The position numbers were made by a program, and so were the translations under genes. DNA of 63,762 nucleotides, counting the filler. It is 12 parts of 12 records of this genome, joined end to end, with 100 filler letters (N's around TTAATTAATTAA, not from the genome) between each part and the next. Parts side by side here need not be neighbours in the genome. Positions count along the whole stretch, not along the records: positions 5,549 to 9,838 come from SRR15195285_3250; 11 more parts are not named here. One strand, given 5' to 3'. The notes under the pieces were generated by a model. That model ran no database searches. It saw nothing but the letters and a program-made list of their open reading frames with translations, and was not told where the DNA came from. Position 1 is the first letter of the stretch. Every line of letters begins with the position of its first letter. Of the stretch, positions 1,611 to 40,200 are shown one piece after another.

Positions 1611-4600
1611 TCAGCTCTCGAAAGGTTTAGCTCTCGTCAACATGTGATGTTTGCTAGTGCGTTCGAGGTAGCGTTTGTCCTTCGGCTCAATTATCCACTC
1701 GTGCCGAAGCAGGTCGTACTTGCCACTAACGGGAACAAACAAAATGAGCAGCGGAGTCATAGACAGATCTCGCACCCATGACCACACACGTTAACAGTGG
1801 CGTGGGAGAAGGGGCTTACATGCTCGGTGGGAATGGGACCTTGCCCACACCAGTCGTTGGTGGCTTCATACAGGATTTATCCCGCGGTTCGATGGTCCTG
1901 TTGAGCAGTGCACAAATGGATCTTAGAGGATGGAACACAAACGCGCCAAAGATGCGGCTTGTGGATTGAGAAGGTGCCAACAACGACAACCACAAAAATG
2001 ATGCATGAAGAGAGGGCATTTCGCACCACTCAGCCCGTATTGGGTTGTACTTGCCGATGCGAGGTGGGAACGGTACCGATGCGGTTCCTCCCTGGTGCGG
2101 ATTCATGGTCCGCTTGTCACGTGGCTCGATCGTCCAAGAGCCCTTAACGGGATCATACTTTCCAATCCGTGCCGGAAACGGTACACTGACGGGAACAAAC
2201 AAAATGAACAGCGGAGTCATAGACAGATTTTGCGTCCATGACCACACACGTTAACAATGGCGTGGGAGGAAGGGCTCACGATGCGGTCCCCGATCGCTCT
2301 TTGTTCTCAGAGATGCCCTTGCGGTGCTGCCCGCTCAGATCTTTCTTCCAGTCAGTAACAACCCGCATGGACTTTTCATGGTGCGCTTGGATTTTCGGGT
2401 CTGCGCCCCATAGCGGGTGTTGCGCCTTCTCCTCCGCAGCCACCTGTGTGGCACTGGGTGGTCAACCGGCAGTGGACAGAGCAGACAAACTCCACAGAGG
2501 GGCACAGATGCAGAGGAGCGGCAGAACAAGCAAGAACATGTGCAACAAGTCGTCAAGCTATTACGTAAAAAGTGCTCACCTGCTGTGTGTGCGAAATATT
2601 TTCGATCGCTTGCCATAGATCCTTTTGAGCACAGGTTGGGAGTCCCATTTGGACAAGCTCCTCGGCGCTGTGGATCCGCTGTGGACCGGCCACTAAATCG
2701 TGCACAGTTCTTACTCCGCGATGGATAAGCTGCCCGAGTGTTGCATCCTTAACTTCGGGTGGGCAGTGCATCAACGACTGGTGCAGGAACCCCGCTATAT
2801 TTGCATGCAGCGGAGCGGACATTCCGACCACATACCTCTCCCATTCACTGTTGCCAGCTGAAATGTAAATGACGTGGCGACGCTGGTCTCGGGTAGAGTC
2901 TATCACACGCCGGCATCGCTTGAATGTTGCAAACGGTCCCTTCTTGCCATCGACGCTCTGCTCCGGCTGTCTACCGTCAGATTTATCGCTTCCATCTGGG
3001 GATACAAACCATTGGCACTCTTCTGGATCTTCTCTATCGAGTAGCTCAAACAGTCCCTGGCCGCGTACTAGATGAAGCGTCCGACGTCTTGGTCCTCTTC
3101 TGGTGGCGTTCGGTGCTCGTCGAGTGGTGCGCGTAACATCCTTGGGCCGTGCACCGTCCAACGACAGCGCGGCATCTGGGTGGCGCGTGGACGCGTATGG
3201 CACAGCTTCTGATACTAACGTGCTGTCCTGCTGTACACCCGCCGTGCTACGCTCGTCTGAGTACTGATCTGGCCAAGATGCGTCATCTTGTACAGAGGAA
3301 GGAGCGCTACTCGGTGCGCTATCAGGTCCCTCGATGCTCGAGGTTGAGGCAGCATCGAGCTGTCGTTCTGCTTGCCACTGTAACCGAGATTCATCCCGCT
3401 GCGCCTGCAGCTCTATATCTTCCTGGCTTTGACTCATCATCCACTTTTCGAACTCACTAAACGTCACTTGTCCGTCACTATCAGTGTCAATGGTACGCAC
3501 AAGCCGCCGGAGCTGCTCGTCAACAAGTCCCATGTCCAACCGCGACATGGCATCTTGCAACTCTTCTAGACTGAGCCAGCCGTTGCCGTCCCGGTCCACT
3601 GCGCTGAAAAAGCTTCGGATGTCTCTACATTGAACTCCGAACACAGATCGACGCTGACCGATGGCATCCGCAATCACGCGAATTAGCGCGCGTTGAACAG
3701 CTTCTGGCATCCGATCAACAGTAGCTTCATAGGCACCACTGCTGCGCGCAACCTGCGCTTCTGGTTCCGGTTCCAGGGCTGCAGCCTGTAAGTACGACGC
3801 CTCTTGTGCCGCGCGAAGCTCAGCGGCGACCTTCTTCTTCTCTGCGAGCAAGGATTCGCGTTGGCGTACCACCTCAGACTCGTGCCGTTTTAGCTGCTCC
3901 CGGATATGGGCATCGGAGGCAGCCTTGGCGCGTTGTATAGCAGCCTGCTCCTCTTCCATGATGGCCCGACGCTGCCCCTCTAGTTCTGCCTTGTGGTTCT
4001 CCAAAGCTAACTGCTGAGCCTCCATCTGTGCCCGTACTTCAGCAGCCTCCTGCTGCGCTCTTGCAAAATGTGCCTGCATCTGTGCTGCTTCTACCTTGGC
4101 TACCTCGACTCTGGACGCTTCTATCTGTGCCGATTTAGACATTTCTGCCTCCATCCTTGCTGCCTCAATCCTCGCTGCATCTGCCTGCGCAGCTTTGTCT
4201 CTCGCTGCTCGCGCATCAGCGAGTGCTTGAGCAGCTTCAATTTGGGACCGGGCCGCTGCTGCCGCCTCAGACTGGGCAGTTGCAGCCGCGGCATCGGCCC
4301 GGGCCTTGGCTGCTGCCTGCGCAGCTTCGGCTTCTGCCCGAGCCCGAATCGTTGTTGCCTCGGCTTCGGCTTTCGCTCTGACAATGATTGCTTCGGCTTC
4401 AGCCTCGGCTCTAGCCCTCGCAATTGCTATCTCGGACTCCAATTGGGCTCTAGCCCTGGCAGCAGTAGCCTCAGCTTCGGCGCTCGCTTCGGCGCCCGCA
4501 GCTTCTGCCTCAGCCCTAGCGATTACCAAAGCAAAGGCGGACTCGGCCTCAGCAGAGTCAGCTTCTTCCTTTGCTTTGGTAATAGCTGCCTCTGCATCAG

Positions 4601-5429
4601 CTCTGGCAGCCGCCGTCGCAGCTTCGGCATTTGCTTTGGCAGCTGCAATCTCCGCTTCAGCTTTAGCAACAGCATTGGCAGCCTGACCTTCAGCCCGTGC
4701 AATAGCAGCTGCAGCTTCCCGATCGCTGATTCCAGTGAGCGTCTCTACTACATCCTCGGATCCTGGTCTGACCGTCGCGTCCACAGCCGGTGCACGTTGG
4801 GTTGGCATATTTGCATCACCCGTCAGCTCACCCCATTGGTTAACGCGATTACCACCGAAGTAGACTGCTTGGGTCGTAGATCCTGTAGCTTGTTGCGTCA
4901 CATCATCGGCCTGAAGTTCCGATTCAAGTGCAGCAATCTCCCGATCCAAGCCCGCCATATTTCTCTTGGATTCCTGAGCAGCCGATTCAGTAGATTCGTT
5001 TGCTGTGTCACCCGAGTGCAGGTGTTGCAGCGCTCTGCGCAGTGTTTGGAAATCTACTTCGCGACTAGCTACCAAGACAATCGGCACATGTCGACCGGAA
5101 CTCAGGATAACTTCCAATCGCTGCCGGTCAAAATCAATTTGGGCAATCCGTGCTAGTGAAACGCAACCAACGGCTTTCCTGGATCGGATATCAGACCAGC
5201 GCAGCACTAACTGATTTCGCAGGCCCGCAAGTTGGAACAAAAATGCTTCGTCGCTTGCTGCTGTCGCATTGCTTGCACGTGCTCCCATCATTTTGAGAAT
5301 CAAACCAGTTTCAAAGAGTTCGGCAATTGCAATATCCGCCTCGGAAATTTGATGATGCTGGTGGCCTATTGCTCTAAGCTCCACAGAGTTGCCTTGAAGG
5401 CCGGCCCGATCACCTTGATGCAGCGGCAT
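1611..5429 (-). CDS. Multi-exon protein: PH-like N-terminus, Ala/Glu coiled coil, EF-hand pair, SAM-like segment, three C-terminal VPFP-IGKY-W.IEP.DK repeats
   Basis: EF loops DRDGNGWLSLEEL and DTDSDGQVTFSEF. The 958-aa ORF is extended in frame by GT-AG introns at 2444-2579, 2186-2279, 1898-2026 and 1726-1819 to a TGA at 1611-1613. The start may lie beyond the contig edge. Confidence 0.75.
1726..1819 (-). repeat. 94-nt spliceosomal intron, copy A of a near-identical pair
   Basis: GTAAGC...CCCGTTAG on the minus strand. It has 10 mismatches in 94 nt against 2186-2279, and its removal restores the IGKYD frame. Confidence 0.85.
2186..2279 (-). repeat. 94-nt spliceosomal intron, copy B of a near-identical pair
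   Basis: GTGAGC...CCCGTCAG on the minus strand. Its removal restores the GTAS-VPFP frame. Confidence 0.85.
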
Positions 5430-5448
5430 CCCCCCAGCCGCACGCGGT

Positions 5449-5548
5449 NNNNNNNNNNNNNNNNNNNNNNNNNNNNNNNNNNNNNNNNNNNNTTAATTAA
5501 TTAANNNNNNNNNNNNNNNNNNNNNNNNNNNNNNNNNNNNNNNNNNNN
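5449..5548. other. Artificial contig spacer (N44-TTAATTAATTAA-N44). The same spacer occurs at 9839, 14615, 20984, 30690, 34662, 41664, 45621, 49124, 54211 and 59955
   Basis: Identical 100-nt structure with a six-frame stop linker, repeated 11 times. Confidence 0.99.
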
Positions 5549-8500
5549 CTATTCGCGAATTCTTCCCAGGTGGGACGATAGCTGAATTCCCTGCAGTGGA
5601 GATTCGGCTGAAGCAATTGTACATGTGGAGGGATCAGGAAGCCAGGAAAAGAGATGACGGGGTGAACAATATCTGCGATAAGCGCACGCTAATCAGGCGG
5701 GCGATCGAGGAGTGTGGATTGGAGTCACTGACCCTGAAACAATCTGCAGCATCAACGAAGCACGCCGGATTGCTTAATGATTCTGGAGCGCAGCAGTCTC
5801 CGTTGGTGCAGGCACAGCAGAAGCAGGTGCAGCCAACACAGCTAGAGAGCTCTCATCTTGTGAGTCCAGAGCTGGAGCCGGAGCCGGAGCCACAGCCAGA
5901 GCTACAGCTGGAGTCGCAGCTGGCGGGTCAGAGTCCTCCCACTGCTCAGATCCCAGAGGAACTACGAAGCCAGGATTACAAAGGTAGCCACGTGCTCATC
6001 GTCTCATACGATCAGAAGGCAGTGGTGGTGCGAGACGAGAAGCAGGACAGGAAGGTCAGGAAGGCTGAGGCGGCATCAGCTGCGTCCGGTGCTGTCATGG
6101 AGAACTTTGTCGTGAAGAACAGCTGGTCACTGGTCGGGGCGAAAAAAGATCAGAGTGATGGTGGCAATCCCTGGTCAACAGTGCTCCGCGCCGCGAGAGC
6201 GAAGGTTGGTCTGGACCTAACGAATACTGACGCGTTCAGACCGATGGCTGTGGCTTATTATCCAGATGCGCACTCATTTCTCTTTTTCGTTGTTGCGAAT
6301 GTCTGCATGAAGCTACACGACGGCTTGGATACGTGTGCGTCCGACTGGCTTGACATCGCAAAGAGACGAATGGTTGCGGCAGATTATATCATGCAAACCG
6401 CTCTACGAGAATTTCGACGGTATGTCAAGCAGGTCGAAATGAGCGTATTTGCCATGGCCGCACCGAACGTTATACCGCAGCACACGCTCACGCATGATCA
6501 TGCTACGCCATCAAGTGATGTGGCACAAGCACAGCAGCATGGCCTAAACTCTTGGCAAGAAATCACAGGCCTAGAGTGTTCTGAACGTGGCTTTGCCACG
6601 AAGACTGTGGATGTTTTCAATCCAGCTGCAAACAAACGTTGGGCAGCCTTGGGCGACAGAGTCATTGAATGGGCGGTGCGAGGGCATCTGTGTTGTCAGG
6701 CTGCAAACTGTGCGACGAGCTTTACAGCCTGCGCGCGGTGTGCTGAGAGGATGAAGCTACTACGTGTTGGTAATGATAAAACCAGCAGCACAGATGCATC
6801 GGGGTGCCCTTACTGCAGCAAAGCTCAGTACACAACAAATCAGGCACTAGCAGGTATCACTCAACGGTGGCTTAAGCCTGCATTGGGCACGTTTCATCGC
6901 GGTCGCTGGTCGCCTGCTCGGAATGATGATCTCAGTGAACATAGAATGGGTACTGCATGCGAAGCAGTCATCGGCCTTGTGGCTCATCAGTTCGGTATCC
7001 GAGAAGCTGTGAAGCTCTACGGACGTGTGGCCGGCTGCATTCCATTGCCCATCACTGACACCGATAATGACTCCTCTCCAGCTCGCCAGGACTACAGTAC
7101 GCTCCTACCGAAGCAACTAGAACGCCATTTTGGCACTCTTGCTGATGTGTGCAAGAGTACCGCCTTGGCAGCGGAGTGGCGAAGGTGCGTGTTTCTGGGT
7201 GAAGCTACAACAGACTTGAGCGTGATGCGCCACCACTTTGACAGCTCTCCGCATGCTGATGTGGGTGACTTGCACACTCTCACACGTAACAACGAGTACC
7301 GCAGCACGAAGCAAACAGCTTTGGCCCGCGCAGCAAAAGCAGCCGGTCTAGGCTCGTGGACAAGCAATTCTGCGCTCAATCAATTTGGATCATTTGGGAA
7401 TCGTGGTGCTGAGCTCGATGTGACAAGCGCGAGTGAGTGCTGGAAGGCAGGCGTCGGCACGTTGCTTCTGGACACTGGCTTCAACTTGGATAACGTAGAC
7501 CAGCTTGTCAGAGTCTTCCTGTTGGAGGTTGTGGAGCCGGAACCAGAGCCAGAGCCGACGGCTACTTCTAGTTGGGGTAGCATGGCCGCAGCTGCCACAG
7601 CCCATACCAGTAGCTGGGGAGCCATGTCGACTCCCAGTGCGTCTGGCGGCTGGGGAGACATCGCCGCGGCACCTGCGATAGGTTCTGGTGGTGGTTGGGG
7701 AAGTGTGGCAACACGTGCTGACACAGATGATGCTGATGTTCTGGAAAACTTTAGCACCGCCAGTGACTCAACTGCCATCGCGACTGCATCCACCAGTGGC
7801 TGGAGTGGAGGCAACGTATCACAACTCGAAGATGATACCGACGAAGTGCGGAATCGAAAGCTGCATCGGCAGGTCAGCTACTACTTCTCAAACCAAGCCT
7901 TAATGGCTGACGGAGATCGGGTCATGGAGCTGATCAACGACGATGTGGCAGCTGGCGGTCTAGGCTTCGTACCTCTAGGAGACCTAATAGAGTTTGGTCA
8001 GGTGAAACAGCTGCTTGACGGCACTTTGCCACCGCATGAGCACAGACTCAGCACTGCTCTGAAGGACTCAGCGCTGCTCGAACTATCACATGATGGGCTC
8101 GCTGTCCGTCGCAAAGGGCCTATCCCAAAGCAGGCTGACTATCGTGATATGCAACGTTATATCAACGACAAAGTGTCGCACGTTGCCCCTAGCAGCGCTG
8201 CCGTGGAGATGACCGTGAACGAGCTTCAGCTTCGCTGTGAGAAGGCACGAGTTTTCAGAGTGGCACAAGAAAAGCTAGAGAAAGCTACTGTGGCTGCCCT
8301 GCACGCTGGCACGATTGACCAGTTCACGGCCGCATGCAAGATGCTTGCGCGCAGTCGCCATCACCTGCTAGTTGACCTGGGCAGGGGCGGACCGAACTCG
8401 CTAGTATTCGAGGAGCGCCACAAGCGGAGGCAGTTGCTGAACGCCTGCAGAATCAACGTTGCCATCTGTGAGGTCGATATCGTCAACCGCCAGAATCGTC

Positions 8501-9375
8501 TCGAGGCTGAACCTGAGCTTCAGCCTCATTCGCAACTAACAGTCGGCGAAAGACTTGAAATAGCCCGATCAGAGCTTCAGCGCTCTAGGTTACTGGAGGA
8601 TGAACCGAAGCTTAGTACCTCTAAAGACTCTACTTCTGAAGAGCAGATGTACACAGAGGCACCTAAGGTAGTAGCCAAGTTTGTCTGGGCATTCATTGCT
8701 CTTGAGTCCGACCATCTTGACCGGTACGCACGAAAGAATACTCCAGAACTAGTCTCTCTTTTTTAGCGTTTTTGTTACACCTCGTTATGATTTACTAAGA
8801 AGCTTGAAATTAACAGAGAGATGTTTTGTGGTACTTATAGGGCAAGTAAGTTTCTGAGAGAAGTGGAGACAAGTTTGAGGGATATGAACGGCTTGAAGGA
8901 CCTTCTCGAAGCGCGTCGCAATGCAATGGATTCAGCTCGCGAGGGTGGCAGCTTCGCAACGATCGAGGCGACCTGCATTTCTGCAGTAGCAAACGAAACC
9001 ATCATTCACAAGCCTGGACGACGAGATCTCTCGCAGTGCCCTGACTTGCGTCCTGACGAACAGCAGTGTAGCAGCTGCGGGGAGCGTGGCGCAGTTGATG
9101 TGCTCTTCACGAGGTCACAATTCAACCGAGCTGAACCACGCTGCAAGGTATGCGTAGAGCAAAGGATACAGGCAGAAAAGCTGCAGAATATTGAGGCACG
9201 TCGAGCGCTGTGCTCGGCTGCAATAGCGACAGCCATGCCGCTGGAGCACGTGCTGCCTGCCGCCCTGCCGACGCCTCAGATCTTGAACCAAGCGAAACGC
9301 AAGCTGACTCAGCTAGAGAAAGCGGCGCGGAAACGCGAGGTAGGCCTTTTCAAGGGAATCTTTAGCATGCCATAA
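5549..9375 (+). CDS. 5'-partial multidomain RNA-processing protein: HRDC-like, degenerate Nudix, tandem RNase III-like, WG repeats, La motif, TPR-like, CxxC-CxxC zinc finger
   Basis: The frame is open from the contig edge. Motifs: LYMWRDQEARKRDD (HRDC-like); WAALGDRVIE...TNQALA...GTACEAVIG and CVFLGEA...ECWKAGVGTLLLDTG (RNase III-like); RQVSYYFS...GFVPL...F...VRRKGPIP (La). A phase-2 intron at 8724-8840 joins the 8821-9375 ORF in frame, giving at least 1235 aa. Confidence 0.8.
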
Positions 9376-10426
9376 TAGAATTGGTTTGGCACGGAGGCGA
9401 AGCCGTGATGATGTCTGGAGGTTCAAACATAGACTAGCAGTCCTGATCCAAGATGTCGTGCACGATCACTAGCATTCCTGATCCAAGATGTACACCACTG
9501 TTGCTATGGGGCAGCCTCCCCTCAAGTCGCTGACTGCGCCAGGTACAAGGCCGCTCTTGGTGCAAATCATGAGGCGTTTCAATACAAGACTGAGTACTAG
9601 GCTCCCTGCCTAGCACAATCGCTCGGAGCTGGGCGCGCTCAACAACGACACACAGCTCCTTCATCAATGTCGTCAACCAAAACGTTATGTTTACTTTCAC
9701 ACATGACACACCTGCACACCTAATAGCAGCACTCATTGGCGCTCATTGGCAACGGGCATAAGGTGGGCAGGCCCGCCGGCCTCCGGAGTAGCGAGGAAGC
9801 CCTCCGGTGGAGTCGCGGGGGCCAAAGCGCCCCCCCCCNNNNNNNNNNNNNNNNNNNNNNNNNNNNNNNNNNNNNNNNNNNNTTAATTAATTAANNNNNN
9901 NNNNNNNNNNNNNNNNNNNNNNNNNNNNNNNNNNNNNNCTTACTTGCATTCCCCGCATGCGTAAGCCGGCAGTACCGGTAGTGCTACTATACTACAGGTG
10001 TAAACCCGGTAAAGTCAAAAAGGCAGACGTCGCGAAAGACGCAAAAACACCCAAGATTGCGGTCGATCGCAGATGTGAACTCAGAATCATATAATCCAGG
10101 ATGAACGCGTGTCGTTCCGGTTCGGACTCGCGCGCCGCGGGAACGCCGGCGCGCGACACGCCCGCGCCGCCGCACGAGGCGCGCCACGCGCATATACATG
10201 TATGCGCCGCGCGATCCGCGGGCATGCAGTCGTCTCTATAACGAGTGAAGTGACGCCGCGGCGGTCCACTCTGCAACTTGTCCACTACGGGGCTGTAGTA
10301 TCCGAATACATCGATGTATAGGTAGAGAACATGTGTGAGGGAACTGCTCAGCAGCAGTGTTGCTAAGACACCGTAGATGGTGTTGCCAACACACCTGGTG
10401 TTGCATTGCACCCCGGGGTTGTATTG

Positions 10427-14714: not shown

Positions 14715-17700
14715 CCGATCCAGCAACGCCCTGCCAGCAGTGCGAGCCTGGAAAGTACGCCGAGGTGGGTAGTAGCGTTTGCACGGACTGCACTGCTCGT
14801 ATACACTGCGTCTGTACAACCCCCGCCGATACTTCTGGTTACGCGGCGATCTCGGAGATGAATTTAGACCTACGCGCAGGAGTGTTCAACGTCTCGGTAG
14901 AGTGTGCTGACACGTATCTTGGCCTAGGGCGAGCGACCCCTTGCGCCGCCAACGGTTCATACACGTTGTCTGGGTGCACACCGATCGCTTGCACCACACC
15001 TTTAGACGTCACCGGCTATCAGATCACAGAGACGGAGCTGTTTGCGCCAGGCTTTGACGTCATGGCAAGTTGTGCCGTTAACTACGAGGGCACCGCATCT
15101 GTGACGGCCTGCAATTCGCCTGGTCCGTATCATCTGAATGGCTGCTCGCCGATTGTCGGCCGGTGTGCCGGGAACACGTGGCAACCAGATTTCAATTGCA
15201 GCACCACTGTGCAGAGGCTAGTGGACAACGCATCGACTACGGTGGGGAATGACACAGCAGGATGCTGTGAGGATATCACAGGTCTCTGTGCCGGCAACAC
15301 TGCGGGCATATCAGCCGACTTTGACTGTAGTTCGACCGGTCGGGTGCTCAAACGTGCTGCACGAACGATCGTCAGTACTGGGCTGGCACGAGATTGCTGT
15401 GACCTAATGCCATGTTCAGCACCAGGTATAATTATAACGACTGCAGCACCACTAGTCATTACGCCGTCGTCCTCTGCATCAGTCAGCGCTGTGGGAACTT
15501 TGCCACTCTGTGTAGTACCACCGGGAGCATTTCTGCGATGGGAATGGTCGATCAGCGACCCAGCTGTGACTCTAGACCCAGGGACGCGCAGCACGAACCA
15601 ACTGCAGTTGCTCCCGTTTACGTTCTTGGCTAGGGTCTCAGCTAGCCTGAGTGTTCGTGGCGCACTCAGCAGCAATCCCAATGAGACAACAACGTCATCA
15701 ATTCAGCTGCTCGTGCTGCCCACTCCCGAGGTTTTTGCGGTGATTTCCGGCGGAAGCTATCGTAGAATTTACCGCGGCGATGCTATTACGTTGGATGGAA
15801 GTATGAGCTCCGATCCAGACACTCCAGTGGCCGACTGGGATAGCATTCAGTGGTCCTGCGTCGATGTGACGACGAATGTTGGGGCCGATATGCCATGCTT
15901 TGCTGACGAACCTGGACCGACAAGTGGCGTGATCTTTCGCGTCGATAGTGCACAGCTGTCGACTTTCACTGAAAAAGTAGAGATAGCGTTAGTTGTTGAA
16001 GCAAATGGACGGACAGACCGAGCAGTCGTCACAGTGGAAGTTGTTGCAGTGCCTGTCCCAGAGGTGTCTGTTGTGGCTGTCCAGCCGAAGTATAGCGCCA
16101 GTCAGAGAATATCTCTCGTTGGAGACGGGCAACCAGTGGACGCAGACCACTCTGACTTCACCTGGGCGTGGTCTGCAAACCTGTTAGCTGATACCGAAAT
16201 TCAAGAGGGAAATTGGCGCCAAGTCCTTGGGCGTGTTGATCTGGACGCAGTTTCGACGACAGCGAGCACAAACCAAGTCCTGGTCATTAACCCAGGATCA
16301 TTAACTGCAGGGGCAAGCTATCGTTTTCGACTTGAAGTGAACGACGGTCGTGCGACAGGGTTAGCGCAGATTGACCTGCATATGAATTTGCCACCTGCCG
16401 ATGGCACCCTCAGCGTCGTTCCTGCCAGTGGAACCGCAATAACAGAAAATTTTGCCATTTCCGCTAGTGGCTGGGCTGATGAGGACCTCCCGCTGACATA
16501 CGCTTTTGGGTACACAGATAGGCCTGTTTCTGCACGTTCCGTTGAGAATGCCCTGACTGAAGCTGCCAATGACTTGAGTGTCTTAGTAGTTCTGCCAGCA
16601 GGCACATTCTGGTTGAGGGTTGTCGTTTCAGACTCTTTTGGAGCGTCGGCCGTGGCGCAAACTGAAGCGGAAGCCACAGCGTACCAACCAGCTGCGCACT
16701 CTGACATCACCACTGATGCAGAAGAAATGCTGAGCGTCAGCATAACCAACGGCAACAGTGCGCAGGCAACTCAGCTTGTCTCTGCGTTTGCTGGTGCGCT
16801 GTCAGATCAGACCACTGAGTCGGGCGGATCAGAAGCCCAGCTGTCGTCAGCACGACAGGTTAGGTCTGTCCTCGCCTCTGCTCTCTCAAACGTTGCAGCA
16901 GGTGCACAAAACTTTTCTAGTGGTCAACTCCGGCTAGTGGCGCAGGCCACATCGGCAGTAGCGAGCGAACCTGATCAGGTCACGCCTGCAGCGCTGGAAG
17001 GCACTGTCAACGCCCTTTCGTCCCTTGGGTCTGCCAGCGCGATGGAAGGCAAAGTGAAAGCACCAGAAGGAGCCCAGTGCAGCAAGACAGAAGTGTGTGC
17101 TCCTCATTGTAGCAATGTTGTGACGTGCGTGGACGCCAACGGGGCTGGAGTGACGCCAGTGGTCGAACAGGTTGACCCAGTGTTGATCACGAGTGTCGTC
17201 AACGCGATCAGTAATGTAATCTACTCCACTCAATCGGCTTCTTCATCTCGCCTTGTGGTTGCTGTGTATTGAATCGATAGAGCTGAAACTTGGAGCAGGT
17301 ACATGCGGCAAACGTACGATCGAGTGCCGCACCAACAACAAACACTTCTGCAACTGCTTCTCACGCAGAGAGCCTTCGACGTCTGGTACGGAAGTCGCAG
17401 GCAGCTATGACTGCGGGTGTCTTCGCAGGAGAAGCCATCAAGAAAATCACCTCACCTAACTTGGACCTAGCGACGCAGGTTGGTTCACCAGAGAAGCTGA
17501 GCAGCGTTGTGGCGGAGGTCGCTGCTGATGTCAAGGTTCACGCACCCGTAGCAGCGTTTGGAGCGTATCCCACTGTCACAATGTCTGCCGTTGCGTGGTA
17601 CGGCCCTCCTAGTTCAGATTGTCTGCAAATGTTACTGTCATCGTTCAGTTGTACACTCCGAGACCTTATCCGTACGAGAGCCCTCACACCGCGCTGGTGG

Positions 17701-34761: not shown

Positions 34762-37026
34762 CGGAGCCGGAGCCGGAGCCGGAGCCGATCGCGTCTACGC
34801 TGTCACCAGGTGAGGCTGAGCGTCAGGCTGCGTCGCTAATGGCGTTGCGACGAGAGAAACTCTCGCGCCAGCAGCAAGACGCACCCAAGGCTCTGAACTG
34901 GGATGTACTCGACTCTCCTGGTCCGCGCAAGAGGCAGCCAGAGTCGCGCAGCGGTAGCCTGGGATCAGTGGCCCCGATCACGCACTACCTGAGTTCGCTG
35001 CCATTCGAAAAGGCGCAGGCGTCGTCCGACGGAGTGGAGCGCAACCTGCTTGCCAAGGATCGCGAGCATGCGCAACACTACGTCGACAAGCTGCATGGTA
35101 CCGCCGTCACTAAGGCACGCGGGGCTGGACCGTCGCCAGAAGCGCGCCGTCGCTACGCGAAGTTACGTCAGGCCTCGCCTCCTCCAAAGCCGATGCTTTT
35201 CTCTCCGCGTGCGGAAGATGAGGATGGGCAGGAGGTCGGTACGGTAGAGATCAACTCGGGGCTGGTCATACCGCCGCCGCCGCTGCCCCCTGCGTTTGGA
35301 TCCCGTGGAAAGACCAGCCCTGTGGATTGCAAGGCGACAAACACGTCGCAGAGCAGCTCAAACCAGCAGTCCAACCTGCAGAACGCCAGCGATCGTTTTC
35401 CAATTGAGAACAGAAGTCTGTTGGAGGGCAACCTGTTGGATGGCGGCTACAGAGTACGCCCAGACGCTATCACAGGTTCCCCAAGCCCGCTGCGGATGCG
35501 CGACCCCGAGCTGTGCGTCACTCGTCATTTCCTTCTAGATTTGTGTTGCATTGCCTCCTAAATTCAGCGTATTGGCTGGTTGGCTTCGCGTTGCACTGCA
35601 TTGCAGATATGCAATACTTGAACCGTCAACATCGAATGTAAACGAACAGTCCTCGCACAAACCGGCAACTGGCGGAATTGAGCCAGAATCTTCACTACAA
35701 AACGAAACTGTTGATGCCATCCCGCGCAGGACGGTGACACTTGGCGGTAAGAACGTCAAGAACACGCGTGCCGTGCTGGCTGCAGAGCAAGCAGCCGCAG
35801 AAGCAGAGCTGGCACGTAAGATTGCAGCGGAGGCGGAGCGTTCGTATGCCATGCAAGCCGAGGCTCAGCAAATGCAGGCTGAACGAGAGCAATCGGCGCA
35901 CGCCGAGGCACAGAAGACAGCGATGCTTGAGTTTGCAGAGTCTATCGGAACCAATGTGCAATTTGAAGACGATGCTGCAGCCGAAAACGCCGAGGGTCTC
36001 AACCAACACAAACAGTCACCGCCATGGAAGATGACAGAGATGGAGCCTGGCGCGAATCCGTTGCTTCAGACAGATCAGCTGGCCCGTGAGCTTACTGACG
36101 AAGTCAAAAGCCTACGTGGGCGTCTGGAAAAGGCAAGTGCAGGCAGTCTACCGCGAGCACAGCTGCGACCAAAGTCTGCTGCGGCTCCCACTCCAAGCAT
36201 GCTTGGACCCCGTCTCGAGATGATCTGCGACGACCTCGATGCATTACCGGTGCGCCCCTTTTCAGTTGTTGCTTTTGTTGGGCTTCTCTTCATACTACCA
36301 GTAGCGCCACTCGTTGACACAGTAAGCGTGGGCTGGCATCGATTGACTCAGCGCAAGACGCCAGAATGTCCGCACGGTTACCAGTTGCGAACTTTTAGAG
36401 TAGGCGACGAGGAGGGCTGGTGTGCATGTTTTCATCAGTGGACGGCTGGCCCGCATGAATCGTACACCGCAGCTGGGTGGACTCCAGATCGCTTGGATCG
36501 GTGGTTTAATATGGCTGCAGGTACAAATGGCGGCTGTGGAATCCGGCAGCCATCCCGAGATCTGTTTCTGATCGAGCGTGTCCATACAGAGGTCGACGAA
36601 GAGGAGCGTGATAAAGCATCGGGAAGCATCAATGAAAACCAAAGCAGCAGCATTGTAGCGACTGCATGCGTATGGACAACGCCAAGCAAAACAAAAAAGA
36701 CCCTGATAGAGCGGAACGGCGCGAAGGTGGTGGTCGCAATGCCTTCAACAGGGGAGATCAACTGGGTAGCAAGCGTCGATGGGCATCGTGGGAAAGGCCT
36801 GGGTGATGTCGTGACGCTGGCAGCCCTGCAGCGATTGCATGAGCTTGGATATCAGAGTTGCTGGTTGGAAACTGATGATTGGCGTATTCCAGCCATTAAG
36901 ACATATTTCAAGTACGGCTTTCGAAAGCTCCTCACGCACGACAGTCACACGGTGAGGTGGGAGACCGTTGAAAAGATGTGCAGGTCAGGGCAGATCGCTC
37001 CGAACGTCGCCCCGCAGCTGCTGTGA
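34762..37026 (+). CDS. Low-complexity protein with C-terminal GNAT acetyltransferase; likely 5'-partial, with introns
   Basis: LRTFRVGDEEGW, IVATACVW, NWVASVDGHRGKGLG (acetyl-CoA motif A) and LETDDWRIPAIKTYFKYGF. The contig starts in (GAGCCG)n. Confidence 0.75.
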
Positions 37027-37240: not shown

Positions 37241-40200
37241 TTAGTAGAACTTTGAGGCAGCAGCGTTGACTGTCTTGGCTTTCTTCTCCATACCGAGCAG
37301 CTGCTCCACCGCTGAGTATAGTTGCTCGACTGCATCGGCCTCCGTCAAGCCGAACGACGGGCTACTCATACGCGTAGATTCCACGTCGTCTCCGTTGCCT
37401 CCGTCACCTCCGTCGTCCTTGCTGGCATCCGTACGGACAACTCGCCACACCTCGCACTTGCCGTCTCGAGGCAGTTGCTCCATGCCAGAGAAGGTTTCAC
37501 CGCCTTGACTCCCCACCGCAAGCCCACACGCTTTCACGGCACGACTCAGCGCGCTAAGATCCTTCCCTCGCTTCGACAATGTTGGCACAGCAACCCGCGC
37601 GATAGCAAGGAGGCCCGTGCCGAGATTTGGTGGATGCGTGGCAACAAAACCGTACTCGCCATGGCTGGCCCACGCCCCATTCTCACCGGCAATTGCGGTG
37701 CAAAGCCGCTCAAGCAATCCTCTACCTTTCGCCAGCAGCGCTGCGAGCCCGCCTTCAGTTGCCTTACAGGATCCACTTACGAGCAACGAAATGTGCTCAT
37801 ATGCCCCGATCCACACCGCTACGCTCCGGTCTTCCGCTAGCCAGAAACCTCGGCCTTCCGGCCAGCATCCAAGGACACCGCCGAGCTTCAGAATCTCTGC
37901 TTGTGGCTCGAACTTTGAGTCCACCAACTCCGGTATGATCATGCCATCAGCCACCTGCCGCAACCCTGAGAGCTCTGAGTCGGCGACGAAATTCTCGTGG
38001 CCTACGGTGAATGAATAGTAACGCCCATCAATAACTTGACCTCCAGGACCCCCCGTTTCCACAGAAAACGCTTCTTTCACGGCAGCGCTCAAAGTTGCCT
38101 CGAGGTCTTTGCGACCAGCTGCGTCGTCACCATACCCCGCCAGCAGCTTGAAATTTGTCCCTTTCACGTTGCGGTTAAACCGCAGGCGAGCGCCGCACTT
38201 TGGTCCAGCTGTCTTCACTTCAATGGGCAGCACTCCGTCGACCTCCCATGACGGCCTTGTTCCGCCCCGATTCGGGGTATCTGGTCCAACATGTAGAGGG
38301 ACACCACCGCCACCAGCAGGTGGCAGAGGAGCGCCAAAGTACGCACGAATCAGCTGGTCCATGAACGGCTGGAGCTTTCGATAGTCCTCTGCTGCGCTGA
38401 TGAAGCAACCGATTGCCTCTCGTTCCCGACCGCACGCGTCCGAGTGTGCGAAGCTCACATTCAGCGCTTTCAGTAACTCTTTTGCCTTTGCACTTCCCAT
38501 TTTGTTCAGGACGTCCGACTCGAACACCTGCGCAACGAGATTATCTGCGTTTGAGCGTGCTGCCTGCTCGAGTGCCGCAACTTCATCTGGGAAACGACCA
38601 GCAATTCCAGTCTGGCGCACTGGCTCTGGCTCCTCCATGGGCGGAGGCGCCCATTCTTCCTCTACTGACACTGGTTCTGGCTCTGGTTGCAGAGGGGGCT
38701 CGGGCTCTCGCCTTGAGGCAGCGATGGCAGCTTGGATAGCTTTAGTGCGTTCCAGCTCCTCGCGTTTCTTTGCTAAGAACTCCTGCTTTGCCTCTTCGCC
38801 ACGTGCCTTGCGCGCCGCTTCTTCCTCCGCAGCCTTCTGCTTCTCTGCAAGCCTTACCAACCTGTCTTCTTCCTTCGCAGCCAGTCGCTCATCAAGCGTG
38901 AGCGACTTCCCACCGCCATTCTCGTAAGCCTCGACACCTTGCCACTGCGACTCGCTGAAATTATGCCTGACGCCGAAGACGGCCGTCGGGTTCTCATATC
39001 CAACACGTGCGCCAAGCTCACTGGCGCTCAGTGCGCCACTCTCATCATGTCGCATGGCTTCGGCAGCCCGTTCCTTTTCTTCACGCGCGAGCCGCTCATC
39101 CATGCCCTGCCCGTCTTCGACCTCGTCGAGAGCGCGATACGCCCCTCCGACAATTCCCATTCCTCCTTTCGATCGCCCCGCAGGGATGCCCTCAGGCGGG
39201 ACCTCAGAAAAGCGAGCGGCATTCAATGTATGAAGCCAACGCTGCTTCTCCATAGCATTGCGCGCCCGAAGAAAGAAAAGTCGATGGGTGCCAGCACGCG
39301 ATACCGTCATCCCTCGCTCGTCTTTACCAACGATCTCGCAATCGATGTGGAACTCAAACTTGTCAAGTTCTCCTCCATCAAGTGGTGCAACCACGTCGTG
39401 AACAACCAAGCATCTCGCTGGGTTTGCACCATGAAACGCACTGGAGTCGCTCCGGCTCACGCGCTCAACGATGTTGTTCATCGCCGCCTCTGATTCAAAG
39501 GCCATTAAAAGTTCACCTTGCAGGAGTATCCATCGCTCTTGCCACCCTCCAAGCTTCTTCAGTGATTTTAGCCACAGCTTTGAGCGGAGTTGTGGTGCAG
39601 CTGCCCCAGTCCGGATCACGCAAGGACTGTACTCAGCGGCCATGACACCAGCCGACGTGGCCAGTTCTTCCATTCGAGGAGTCTCCTGTGCATCTTCATC
39701 TGCGTACAATCCTGGTGGCGTGTACTTCACATTCAGCGCCTTCATCCACACTAGTTTCTCGTCCGCCGACGACGCCCGCACGTGGATCACGCGCTGGCCT
39801 GTGTCGACGTGGAACTCATGCACACTGTCAGTCGAGCTCTCTTCTTCTGTCTCGAACGTCATGGGCATATCCGCCATCGCATTCTCTGTACCACTAGCGC
39901 CGGTATCTCCTGGGGCATCCCTGTTGCAACGCAAAGTTGAGTGCATACGTTATCAAAGACTAAGAACGGGACGAGCCGATGCTCACCGGACATCTTTCAC
40001 GAAAAGAACCTCATACGGCCTCCCATAGTTGCCGGTCAGTTTGTGTCGCTGATTCTCTGCAGCGTCCTCCTGCGCACAGATGTTGCGGTCGACATGACTC
40101 TTGCATCTACCGTAGCGCATATTGTATGTTAGGATAGCAATCATTTCGTGCAGAACGTACCATACGCTCGTAGTAGCGCAGCTCCTTGTCCTTGAGTGTC

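Follow-up and report, generated by a model that had tools for sequence, protein, structure and literature searches.

The gene and its relatives

The window, i.e. the whole stretch of DNA that was analysed, comprises 63,762 bases in which 12 contigs are joined by 11 artificial N..TTAATTAATTAA..N linkers. One of these contigs, bordered by the linkers at 5449-5548 and 9839-9938, carries a gene that the original prediction had described as a candidate for a novel all-in-one small-RNA processing protein. The encoded protein belongs to a small, apparently undescribed family in which a tandem pair of RNase III domains follows an exonuclease, an HRDC and a Nudix domain. In the clade of the window protein, sequence comparison indicates that this nuclease core is fused to a second module, made up of WG/GW repeats, the La motif, a TPR-like domain and a finger with four cysteines. 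The catalytic residues of the RNase III domains are degraded, and the protein most likely does not act as a dicing enzyme.

The gene is truncated at its 5' end by the contig edge. Between 5551 and 8763 the frame remains open for 1071 codons with zero stops, up to a TAG at 8764-8766, and a second open frame in the same phase (8791-9375) closes with a TAA at 9373-9375. After removal of a putative intron a frame of 1235 codons is obtained. All segments listed in the original prediction are present in this one chain where it had placed them. The features are collected in Table 1.

Table 1. Features of the gene and its contig, in positions along the window.
Feature	Position	Strand	Basis
Gene-bearing contig, 4,290 bases	5549..9838	.	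Flanked on both sides by linkers
Coding exon 1, 5'-incomplete (contig edge)	5551..8723	+	1057 full codons (P0001) plus 2 bases
Putative HRDC domain, N-terminal half (aa 17-55)	5599..5715	+	Pfam HRDC E 0.0021; start of the EXOSC10 HRDC in profile A4
Putative Nudix-fold domain, predicted catalytically degenerate; box 6124-6219	5977..6420	+	BLASTP to P0004 and P0005; motif columns
RNase IIIa domain (aa 355-497) with CxxC..CPYC insert (~6685-6840)	6613..7041	+	Family profile, fold, catalytic columns
RNase IIIb domain (aa 540-660), predicted inactive	7168..7530	+	Pfam PF00636 E 4.5e-8, family profile, fold
Five WG/GW motifs in a Gly/Ser/Ala/Thr-rich stretch, Argonaute-hook-like	7573..7803	+	Residue context and family conservation
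La motif (aa 762-860), no RRM detected after it	7834..8130	+	Pfam, PDB, family profile, homologue model
Helical TPR-like region, first part	8218..8723	+	Homologous to the start of the P0032 TPR domain
Putative GT..AG intron, 117 nt	8724..8840	+	Composition and collinearity with relatives; RNA gives no confirmation
Coding exon 2 including the TAA stop 9373-9375 (P0002)	8841..9375	+	Homology to relatives
CxxC..F-T-x-S-Q..CxxC four-cysteine finger	9067..9153	+	Family alignment, Pfam, PDB

When 1.84 billion representative proteins were scanned exhaustively with HMMER, only 14 relatives emerged at E<=1e-3, and those that were looked up are all from metagenomes. P0003 (1320 aa, from a JGI metagenome), which is encoded on a separate 11 kb contig, is 77% identical to the window protein over its whole length; in tblastn its residues 192-1315 cover 5551-8763 at 77% identity. 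P0005 (1381 aa, from an ENA metagenome) shows the identical domain order at ~31-35% identity. At the RNA level, a library contig of 2152 nt (X18 record 28; depth 43, 96% identical) spans 6250-8406, so that a single molecule reaches from the last part of the Nudix domain through the RNase III pair and the WG repeats to the La motif and past it. Relative to this contig 20 of the 38 visible changed codons are synonymous (39 of the ~125 differences being listed), and within the IIIa core (aa 355-397) all 8 of 8 changed codons are synonymous. The 77% identical relative on a separate contig, the domain order of P0005 and the bridging RNA-library contig argue that this protein-coding gene of an uncultured marine protist is real and not chimeric.

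The sequence of the gene recurs in metagenome runs from marine or seawater samples (at least 13 studies) and also turned up in 4 RNA libraries, which belong to 2 studies. Scans of metagenome contigs and viral contigs found no DNA locus of the relatives, and no giant-virus relative was seen in them. Members of the family came solely from marine metagenomes and one picozoan single-cell assembly. The sole named relative, P0007, is a 77-aa fragment that is ~88% identical to the window protein and bears a EukProt label which, according to a preprint, stands for a picozoan co-assembled single-cell genome. The host is thus probably a picozoan or a close relative, an assignment that goes back to one short, low-coverage contig.

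A predicted Dicer/Drosha-like RNase III pair

The tandem RNase III domains claimed in the original prediction are borne out by profile and fold comparisons. Pfam recognises PF00636 in IIIb at aa 547-641 with 34.2 bits against a gathering cut-off of 27, and a 7-sequence family profile matches human Drosha (E 2e-4), with IIIa and IIIb aligned in order, as well as C. jejuni RNase III (E 7.5e-4). A structure model of aa 130-670, calculated from a 12-row alignment (mean pLDDT 61.5, mostly 60-90 in the RNase III part), matches Drosha with a Z score of 20.3 (279 residues aligned, rmsd 4.2, model residues 187-536), followed by Dicer (18.7), DCL1 (17.1), Giardia Dicer (16.8) and DCL3 (16.8), single-domain bacterial enzymes having Z scores of ~8-10. 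Foldseek gives the same picture, as ranks 1-33 (all E <= 0.01, best E 1.5e-6) are without exception Dicer, Drosha or DCL proteins. According to the model, IIIa and IIIb form a Dicer/Drosha-like intramolecular pseudo-dimer.

We compared the metal-binding acidic positions, which we take to be E40, D44, D107 and E110 in Aquifex numbering. In IIIa of the window protein these correspond to A365, D369, T468 and E471. Within the family, position E40 of IIIa is never acidic (A or G in 9/9), D44 is always D (9/9), D107 is D in 3/8 and E110 is E in 8/8. The corresponding residues of IIIb are V547, E551, E629 and K632; here the family has a non-acidic residue at E40 in 7/7 and E at D44 in 7/7, position D107 is E in 5/7, D in 1/7 and A in 1/7, and E110 is replaced by K, C or N in 7/7. 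The full set of four acidic residues is found in neither domain. D369 and E471, both retained in IIIa, are the two most critical ones, and a lysine at E110 corresponds to the E. coli rnc70 change (E117K), with which dsRNA is bound and not cut. With K632 and V547 in IIIb and two of the four acidic residues of IIIa gone, two-strand dicing is unlikely. IIIb is predicted to be catalytically dead, and these columns suggest that the pair would serve as a platform for binding duplexes and has one weakened cutting site at most. The CxxC..CP[Y]C insert of IIIa, which is kept in 7 of 8 family members and is not seen in the aligned Drosha, is probably a zinc-binding knob.

The window protein thus resembles Drosha and Dicer in having two RNase III domains in one chain, with a predicted intramolecular dimer and with both Drosha domains aligned in order. 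In contrast to these enzymes, its IIIb has no catalytic glutamate, its IIIa is devoid of two of the four acidic residues and contains the CxxC..CPYC insert. As the original prediction had noted, PAZ and dsRBD are not visible: Pfam at E<=1 detects neither of them, nor a helicase or the Drosha central domain, in P0001 or P0002. The termini differ as well, the family starting with exonuclease, HRDC and Nudix domains and the window protein ending with WG repeats, La motif, TPR-like region and finger. Degraded catalytic residues in an RNase III fold are also a feature of RNase III pseudo-enzymes, such as the kinetoplastid editing endonuclease partners, Mucor R3B2 and the mitoribosomal proteins, which serve binding or one-strand cutting and in which a single RNase III domain pairs in trans. 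Fold matches to this group are weaker (T. brucei RECC1, Z 8.2; R3B2, Z 6.8; human mitoribosome, Z 8.3), and unlike them the window protein has its pair in one chain and is much nearer to Drosha and Dicer.

The WG cluster and the La motif

The five WG/GW motifs that had been claimed upstream of the La motif were all recovered. They comprise tryptophans at aa 675, 689, 701, 716 and 751, all in the context [SG][SG]W[GS] and within a 91-aa stretch made up mostly of A, S, G and T. Within aa 670-760 5/5 tryptophans have a WG context, compared to 0/13 among the other tryptophans of the protein. A cluster of 3-6 such motifs lies directly upstream of the La motif in 7/7 La-bearing members of the family and is conserved in number, context and position down to ~30% identity, while it is missing as a cluster in 3/3 La-less paralogues. 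The conservation in all La-bearing members argues for an Ago-hook-type binding function. Like GW182/TNRC6, S. pombe Tas3 and plant NRPE1/SPT5L, the window protein has 3-6 clustered tryptophans flanked by G or S in a low-complexity stretch of small residues that is conserved in the family; it has no further similarity to these Ago-hook proteins.

The La motif, which the original prediction had called clear, is well founded. As a single sequence it matches the PDB with E 9.5e-4, the single-sequence Pfam match (E 0.021) being under the cut-off. A 6-sequence profile matches T. brucei La (1s29) over the full length with E 1.6e-9 and Dictyostelium La with E 2.5e-7, followed by LARP6 and LARP7, with values ranging to 7.7e-5. 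In the model of a homologue the La motif superposes on 1s29 (TM 0.65, target-normalised; rmsd 3.2) and is succeeded by the helices of the TPR domain. Residues Q20, Y23, Y24, D33 and F55 of what we take to be the 3'-end pocket, in human La numbering, are kept, and F35 is changed to L. In comparison with La, LARP6 and LARP7, with which it shares a full-length La motif, the window protein differs in that the motif is not followed by an RRM, forms part of a nuclease fusion and invariably has WG repeats in front of it. Judging by the alignments, the WG cluster and the La motif are a conserved unit in 7/7 La-bearing relatives.

The predicted N-terminal exonuclease, HRDC and Nudix domains

P0003, P0004 and P0005 begin with a 3'-5' exonuclease domain (PF01612; E 3.5e-29, 3.9e-27 and 4e-24, respectively). 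A family profile matches EXOSC10/Rrp6 from the exonuclease into the HRDC domain with E 4.2e-42 (range for EXOSC10 and Rrp6, 4.2e-42 to 1e-37), and P0004 alone matches EXOSC10 with E 7.7e-29. The same profile gives E 1.2e-7 for Mut-7 and 1.4e-8 for WRN. The DEDD-Y motifs are intact in 3/3 of these relatives. The missing 5' end of the window gene is therefore predicted, from the 77% identical relative, to encode an Rrp6/EXOSC10-like DEDD-Y 3'-5' exonuclease; the exonuclease part is absent from all other contigs of the window. This domain, which was invisible to the original prediction, shifts the reading of the protein towards 3'-end trimming. With Rrp6/EXOSC10 the family shares both exonuclease and HRDC, whereas in the window itself the exonuclease falls past the contig edge and only the first half of the HRDC domain is recognisable. 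We know of no Rrp6 protein with RNase III, Nudix or La domains.

An HRDC-like segment had been predicted near the start of the frame, and this assignment is tentatively supported for half a domain. The Pfam match (PF00570, aa 19-48) stays under the cut-off (18.4 bits, with 23.8 required) and is confined to positions 4-33 of the 68 in the profile, and aa 17-55 align with the start of the EXOSC10/Rrp6 HRDC in the family profile.

The degenerate Nudix box, in turn, lies in a region with a genuine Nudix homologue: BLASTP aligns aa 143-231 with a domain of P0004 (E 2e-7) that Pfam recognises as NUDIX (E 4.2e-12), and aa 143-311 with P0005 (E 3e-23), while Pfam finds no Nudix domain in the window protein itself. 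Compared to the Nudix box consensus GX5EX7REUXEEXGU (PF00293), the window protein reads R-A-A-R-A-K where P0004 has R-E-A-K-E-E, so that the glutamates of REUxEE are gone; this loss is common to P0003, P0005 and P0016. A language-model feature search returned NUDIX clusters at 0.93, which is a lead only. From its motif columns the region is very probably an inactive, Nudix-derived domain.

The TPR-like region and the four-cysteine finger

Pfam detects no TPR in the window protein, and the TPR-like region of the original prediction is seen through a homologue. In a model of P0032 calculated from a 9-row alignment (mean pLDDT 53.9; 80-90 in the helical part and 82-87 in the finger), residues 328-550 form a TPR domain whose best match is the TPR domain of FKBP38 (Z 14.3), nearly all of the 50 listed matches being of the TPR type or helical repeats. 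Foldseek supports this fold with E 5e-3 and a probability of 1.0. The window protein is shorter overall and shares only the first part of this domain by sequence. A TPR-like region in the window protein is plausible, its fold being modelled on P0032 only.

The original prediction had further proposed a Stc1-like zinc finger. The finger itself is present and its pattern, C-x2-C .. F-T-x-S-Q-x-N .. C-K-V-C, is conserved in 4/4 aligned sequences, but the likeness to Stc1 is marginal. Pfam Stc1 (PF12898) matches the window protein with E 0.017 and 16.1 bits against a cut-off of 24.8, in the second half of the profile, and matches 0/3 relatives. The top PDB match of the single sequence is Stc1 (2luy) at a non-significant E 0.39, and the family profile does not find 2luy in the PDB at E<=10. 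Atlas scores of 0.86 and 0.85 are leads only, as the clusters concerned contain Stc1 in 13% and 20% of their members. S. pombe Stc1 is a tandem zinc-finger adaptor between Ago1 and CLRC. The window finger aligns with the second Stc1 zinc finger, sharing the F-[ST]-x-[AS]-Q motif and the C-x-x-C pairs, and differs from Stc1 in having four cysteines instead of two fingers, with all scores sub-significant. Membership in the Stc1 family was rejected on account of the four cysteines in place of eight Zn ligands, the sub-threshold scores, and the relatives and family profile, which give no match.

The putative intron

The single intron of the original prediction is supported by its composition and by comparison with relatives, and RNA-library contigs provide no splice junction for it. 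The GC content of the 117-nt segment is 0.35, compared to 0.545 and 0.553 in the flanking exons, and it contains in-frame TAG and TGA stops. Exon 1 (P0001 aa 687-977) matches residues 112-423 of the stand-alone metagenome protein P0032 (BLASTP E 4e-31), and exon 2 (P0002 aa 72-175) matches residues 733-839 at the extreme C-terminus of the same protein (E 2e-11) as well as P0009 (E 1e-8); tblastn agrees with BLASTP on the collinearity of both exons. P0003, a prokaryote-style gene call, aligns for ~13 residues beyond 'DHLD-R', with identity falling after the first four (-Y-A-R), and then ends. A stop shortly past 'DHLD-R' is as expected from a conserved intron position.

No joint 8723/8841 was seen in the contigs of the 4 runs compared. 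A 331-nt RNA-library contig (X16 record 14, depth 4.2) spans 8588-8918 unspliced, and another (X17 record 23) begins inside the putative intron. As RNA libraries may include DNA or pre-mRNA, the unspliced contig neither confirms nor rules out splicing, and the proposed splice is supported by composition and comparative evidence only. Reassignment of stop codons in place of an intron was rejected, because two different stops (TAG and TGA) occur within 117 nt and none in the 1071-codon frame.

Architecture of the family

The module of WG repeats, La motif, TPR domain and finger occurs free-standing in P0009, P0024 and P0032, and the C-terminal module of the window protein is collinear with stand-alone P0032. 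The N-terminal 40-110 residues of these three proteins contain a hydrophobic stretch resembling a signal anchor or transmembrane segment, which the fused form of the window lacks.

Other members of the family have other combinations. The paralogue P0004 (1684 aa) combines the RNase III pair with an exonuclease, an HRDC domain, an RRM and a still intact Nudix domain. Of the metal-binding positions of its IIIa domain, D44, D107 and E110 are acidic and E40 is alanine. It further shows weak matches to PAZ (E 0.015), the RIG-I C-terminal domain (E 0.076) and a Yippee-type CxxC motif (0.084), at residues ~875-920 and 1565-1631. The PAZ match was not reproduced among the best 60 of the 148 PDB chains matched, and the corresponding region is absent from the window protein. 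If the weak matches are real, P0004 would be an exonuclease-Nudix-PAZ-RRM-RNase III-RIG-I-CTD protein and arguably more Dicer-like than the window protein. P0010 and P0029 contain an RRM and the RNase III pair, with or without a SAM domain, and P0011 has the RNase III pair and a CxxC tail. Compared with these proteins, the window protein looks like a derived member, in which the enzymatic sites would have decayed and a WG-La-TPR-finger protein would have been fused on.

The original prediction knew of no described protein with this architecture. In agreement with this, the architecture appears to be undescribed, as no description of the domain combination was found in the literature searched, although subscription-journal surveys of RNAi architectures might hold one. 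Among the matches listed for Picozoa together with Argonaute or Dicer there was no Picozoa paper.

Other contigs of the window

The linker cores lie at 5493, 9883, 14659, 21028, 30734, 34706, 41708, 45665, 49168, 54255 and 59999. Since the spacers between contigs are artificial, genes on the two sides of a spacer are not genomic neighbours. The other contigs carry ordinary eukaryotic genes with a REJ domain, PH and guanido-kinase domains, IQ repeats and ankyrin repeats. An 851-aa open frame at 14717-17269 (+) contains a REJ domain of the polycystin or sperm receptor type (E 8e-56). At 37244-39949 (-) a 902-aa open frame has the unusual pairing of PH domains with an ATP:guanido phosphotransferase catalytic domain of the arginine/creatine-kinase type (E 1.9e-14). 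The adjoining contig contains a 964-aa open frame (2556-5447, -) with long alanine/glutamate-rich repeats of the AEAEA type, part of which is EF-hand-like by eye.

Low-complexity stretches coding for EPEPEP or ELEPEL linkers occur at 5835-5977, at 7533-7560 and at the start of the contig at 34764. They draw thousands-fold depth and many loose ends from metagenome contigs; linkers of this kind are very frequent, either in the communities sampled or in the organism itself. Such linkers give rise to spurious joints, and the joints 5889-5897/7532-7533 in DNA run X1, with sides of 20-24 letters between two EPEP-coding repeats, were rejected as repeat cross-matches.

Discussion

Only few kinds of accessory domain are known to accompany the tandem RNase III domains of Dicer and Drosha. 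Here a Dicer/Drosha-type core is set between an Rrp6-type exonuclease and Nudix domain on one side and Ago-hook-like WG repeats, a La motif, a TPR region and a zinc finger on the other. Read as a 'Rosetta stone' fusion, this arrangement predicts a single pathway in which an RNA duplex is recognised, a 3' end is captured, 3'-5' trimming takes place and a WG-binding partner is recruited. With a probability of roughly 0.5 we regard the window protein as an RNA-binding, possibly nicking scaffold that unites these four functions, the partner being most plausibly Argonaute. The RNase III pair would mainly recognise an RNA duplex and nick one strand at most, while the La motif would hold the RNA 3' end so that it could be trimmed by the N-terminal exonuclease. 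The WG repeats would recruit the partner. All activities in this scheme, like the identity of the partner, are predicted from the domains present. What the sequences themselves show is which domains there are and in which order, the state of their catalytic residues, their conservation within the family and the occurrence of the gene in RNA libraries. The outcome would be precursor recognition coupled to 3'-end trimming of small or non-coding RNAs, with no dicing of dsRNA.

Several observations weigh against such a scaffold. The exonuclease domain lies beyond the contig edge and outside the window, its presence being taken over from the 77% identical relative. The low-complexity WG repeats may have other partners or none, and Pfam finds no RRM after the La motif at E<=1, although genuine La modules use an adjacent RRM. 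In the AlphaFold model the Nudix part has a pLDDT <50 and no fold match (best Z 4.1). The deduction of activity from residue columns can fail as well: active Drosha IIIa has an asparagine at the D107-equivalent position in the family-profile alignment, so that T468 alone is not disabling, and since IIIa retains D369 and E471, real cleavage may be possible. The RNA-library contig that crosses the putative intron unspliced also belongs here.

The scaffold has to be weighed against a nuclear factor for 3'-end processing or surveillance of non-coding RNA that has no link to RNA silencing, the WG stretch being an unrelated low-complexity linker or serving another partner. It would operate as in yeast, where Rnt1 cleaves and Rrp6 and the exosome then trim, with La protecting the intermediates and a Nudix enzyme acting on caps; in the window protein these steps would be united in a single chain. 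The exonuclease, which is Rrp6/EXOSC10-like (E 4.2e-42; P0004 alone 7.7e-29) and far less Mut-7-like (1.2e-7), speaks for this explanation, as do the La motif, the paralogue with an intact Nudix domain, and the fact that PAZ, helicase and dsRBD are undetected. On the other hand, the conservation of the WG cluster in 7/7 La-bearing members at ~30% identity favours Ago-hook-type binding, and the degraded Nudix and RNase III catalytic residues of the window clade fit a scaffold better than a processing enzyme. We consider this nuclear role doubtful, even if it is the strongest of the competitors. Clearly less probable is a true non-canonical Dicer, in which both dsRNA strands would be cut, La would act as a PAZ-like end-measuring module and the products would pass to Argonaute via the WG hooks. 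A Dicer-like activity of this kind had been suggested by the original prediction, and a tandem RNase III fold with Drosha and Dicer as its nearest matches, the WG repeats, the La motif and the weak PAZ (Pfam E 0.015) and RIG-I C-terminal-domain (E 0.076) matches of P0004 could be taken in its favour. Against it stand K632 in place of the essential glutamate of IIIb and V547 at a further acidic position, the catalytic loss in all 7 members with this region and the two missing acidic residues of IIIa. The PAZ match of P0004, moreover, is below threshold, does not appear among the best 60 of 148 PDB chains and concerns a region that the window protein does not have.

An artefact, i.e. a chimeric assembly, a decaying pseudogene or two genes with 8791-9375 unrelated to the upstream frame, is largely refuted. 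It could be argued from the short contig (4.3 kb) of a fragmented assembly, from the splice that was not observed together with the RNA-library contig crossing the intron unspliced, and from the degraded catalytic residues. However, it is countered by the collinear architecture on independent contigs of other collections and by DNA and RNA contigs that bridge the domain boundaries. The 1071-codon frame is uninterrupted, synonymous changes are in excess within conserved cores, and both exons match one continuous relative protein up to its C-terminal end. The degraded residues, finally, are conserved family-wide and not random.

A bolder extension of the scaffold, rather unlikely in our view, is that the window protein, together with its better-preserved paralogues, forms the core of a Dicer-independent machine for small-RNA maturation, in which the pseudo-dimer, through a single active site, would nick one strand of a duplex precursor, the Rrp6-like exonuclease would trim the new 3' end while La held it, and the WG repeats would load the product directly onto Argonaute. 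If this were true, a single polypeptide would perform cutting, trimming and loading in a eukaryotic lineage that is little known, probably Picozoa. The family-wide loss of the IIIb site together with a partly kept IIIa site would turn the pair into a natural example of a tandem RNase III that has one site or only binds, and such a pair would be useful for understanding how RNase III enzymes evolve into scaffolds. The family would also provide a first handle on the RNA-processing or silencing machinery of a lineage with almost no molecular data.

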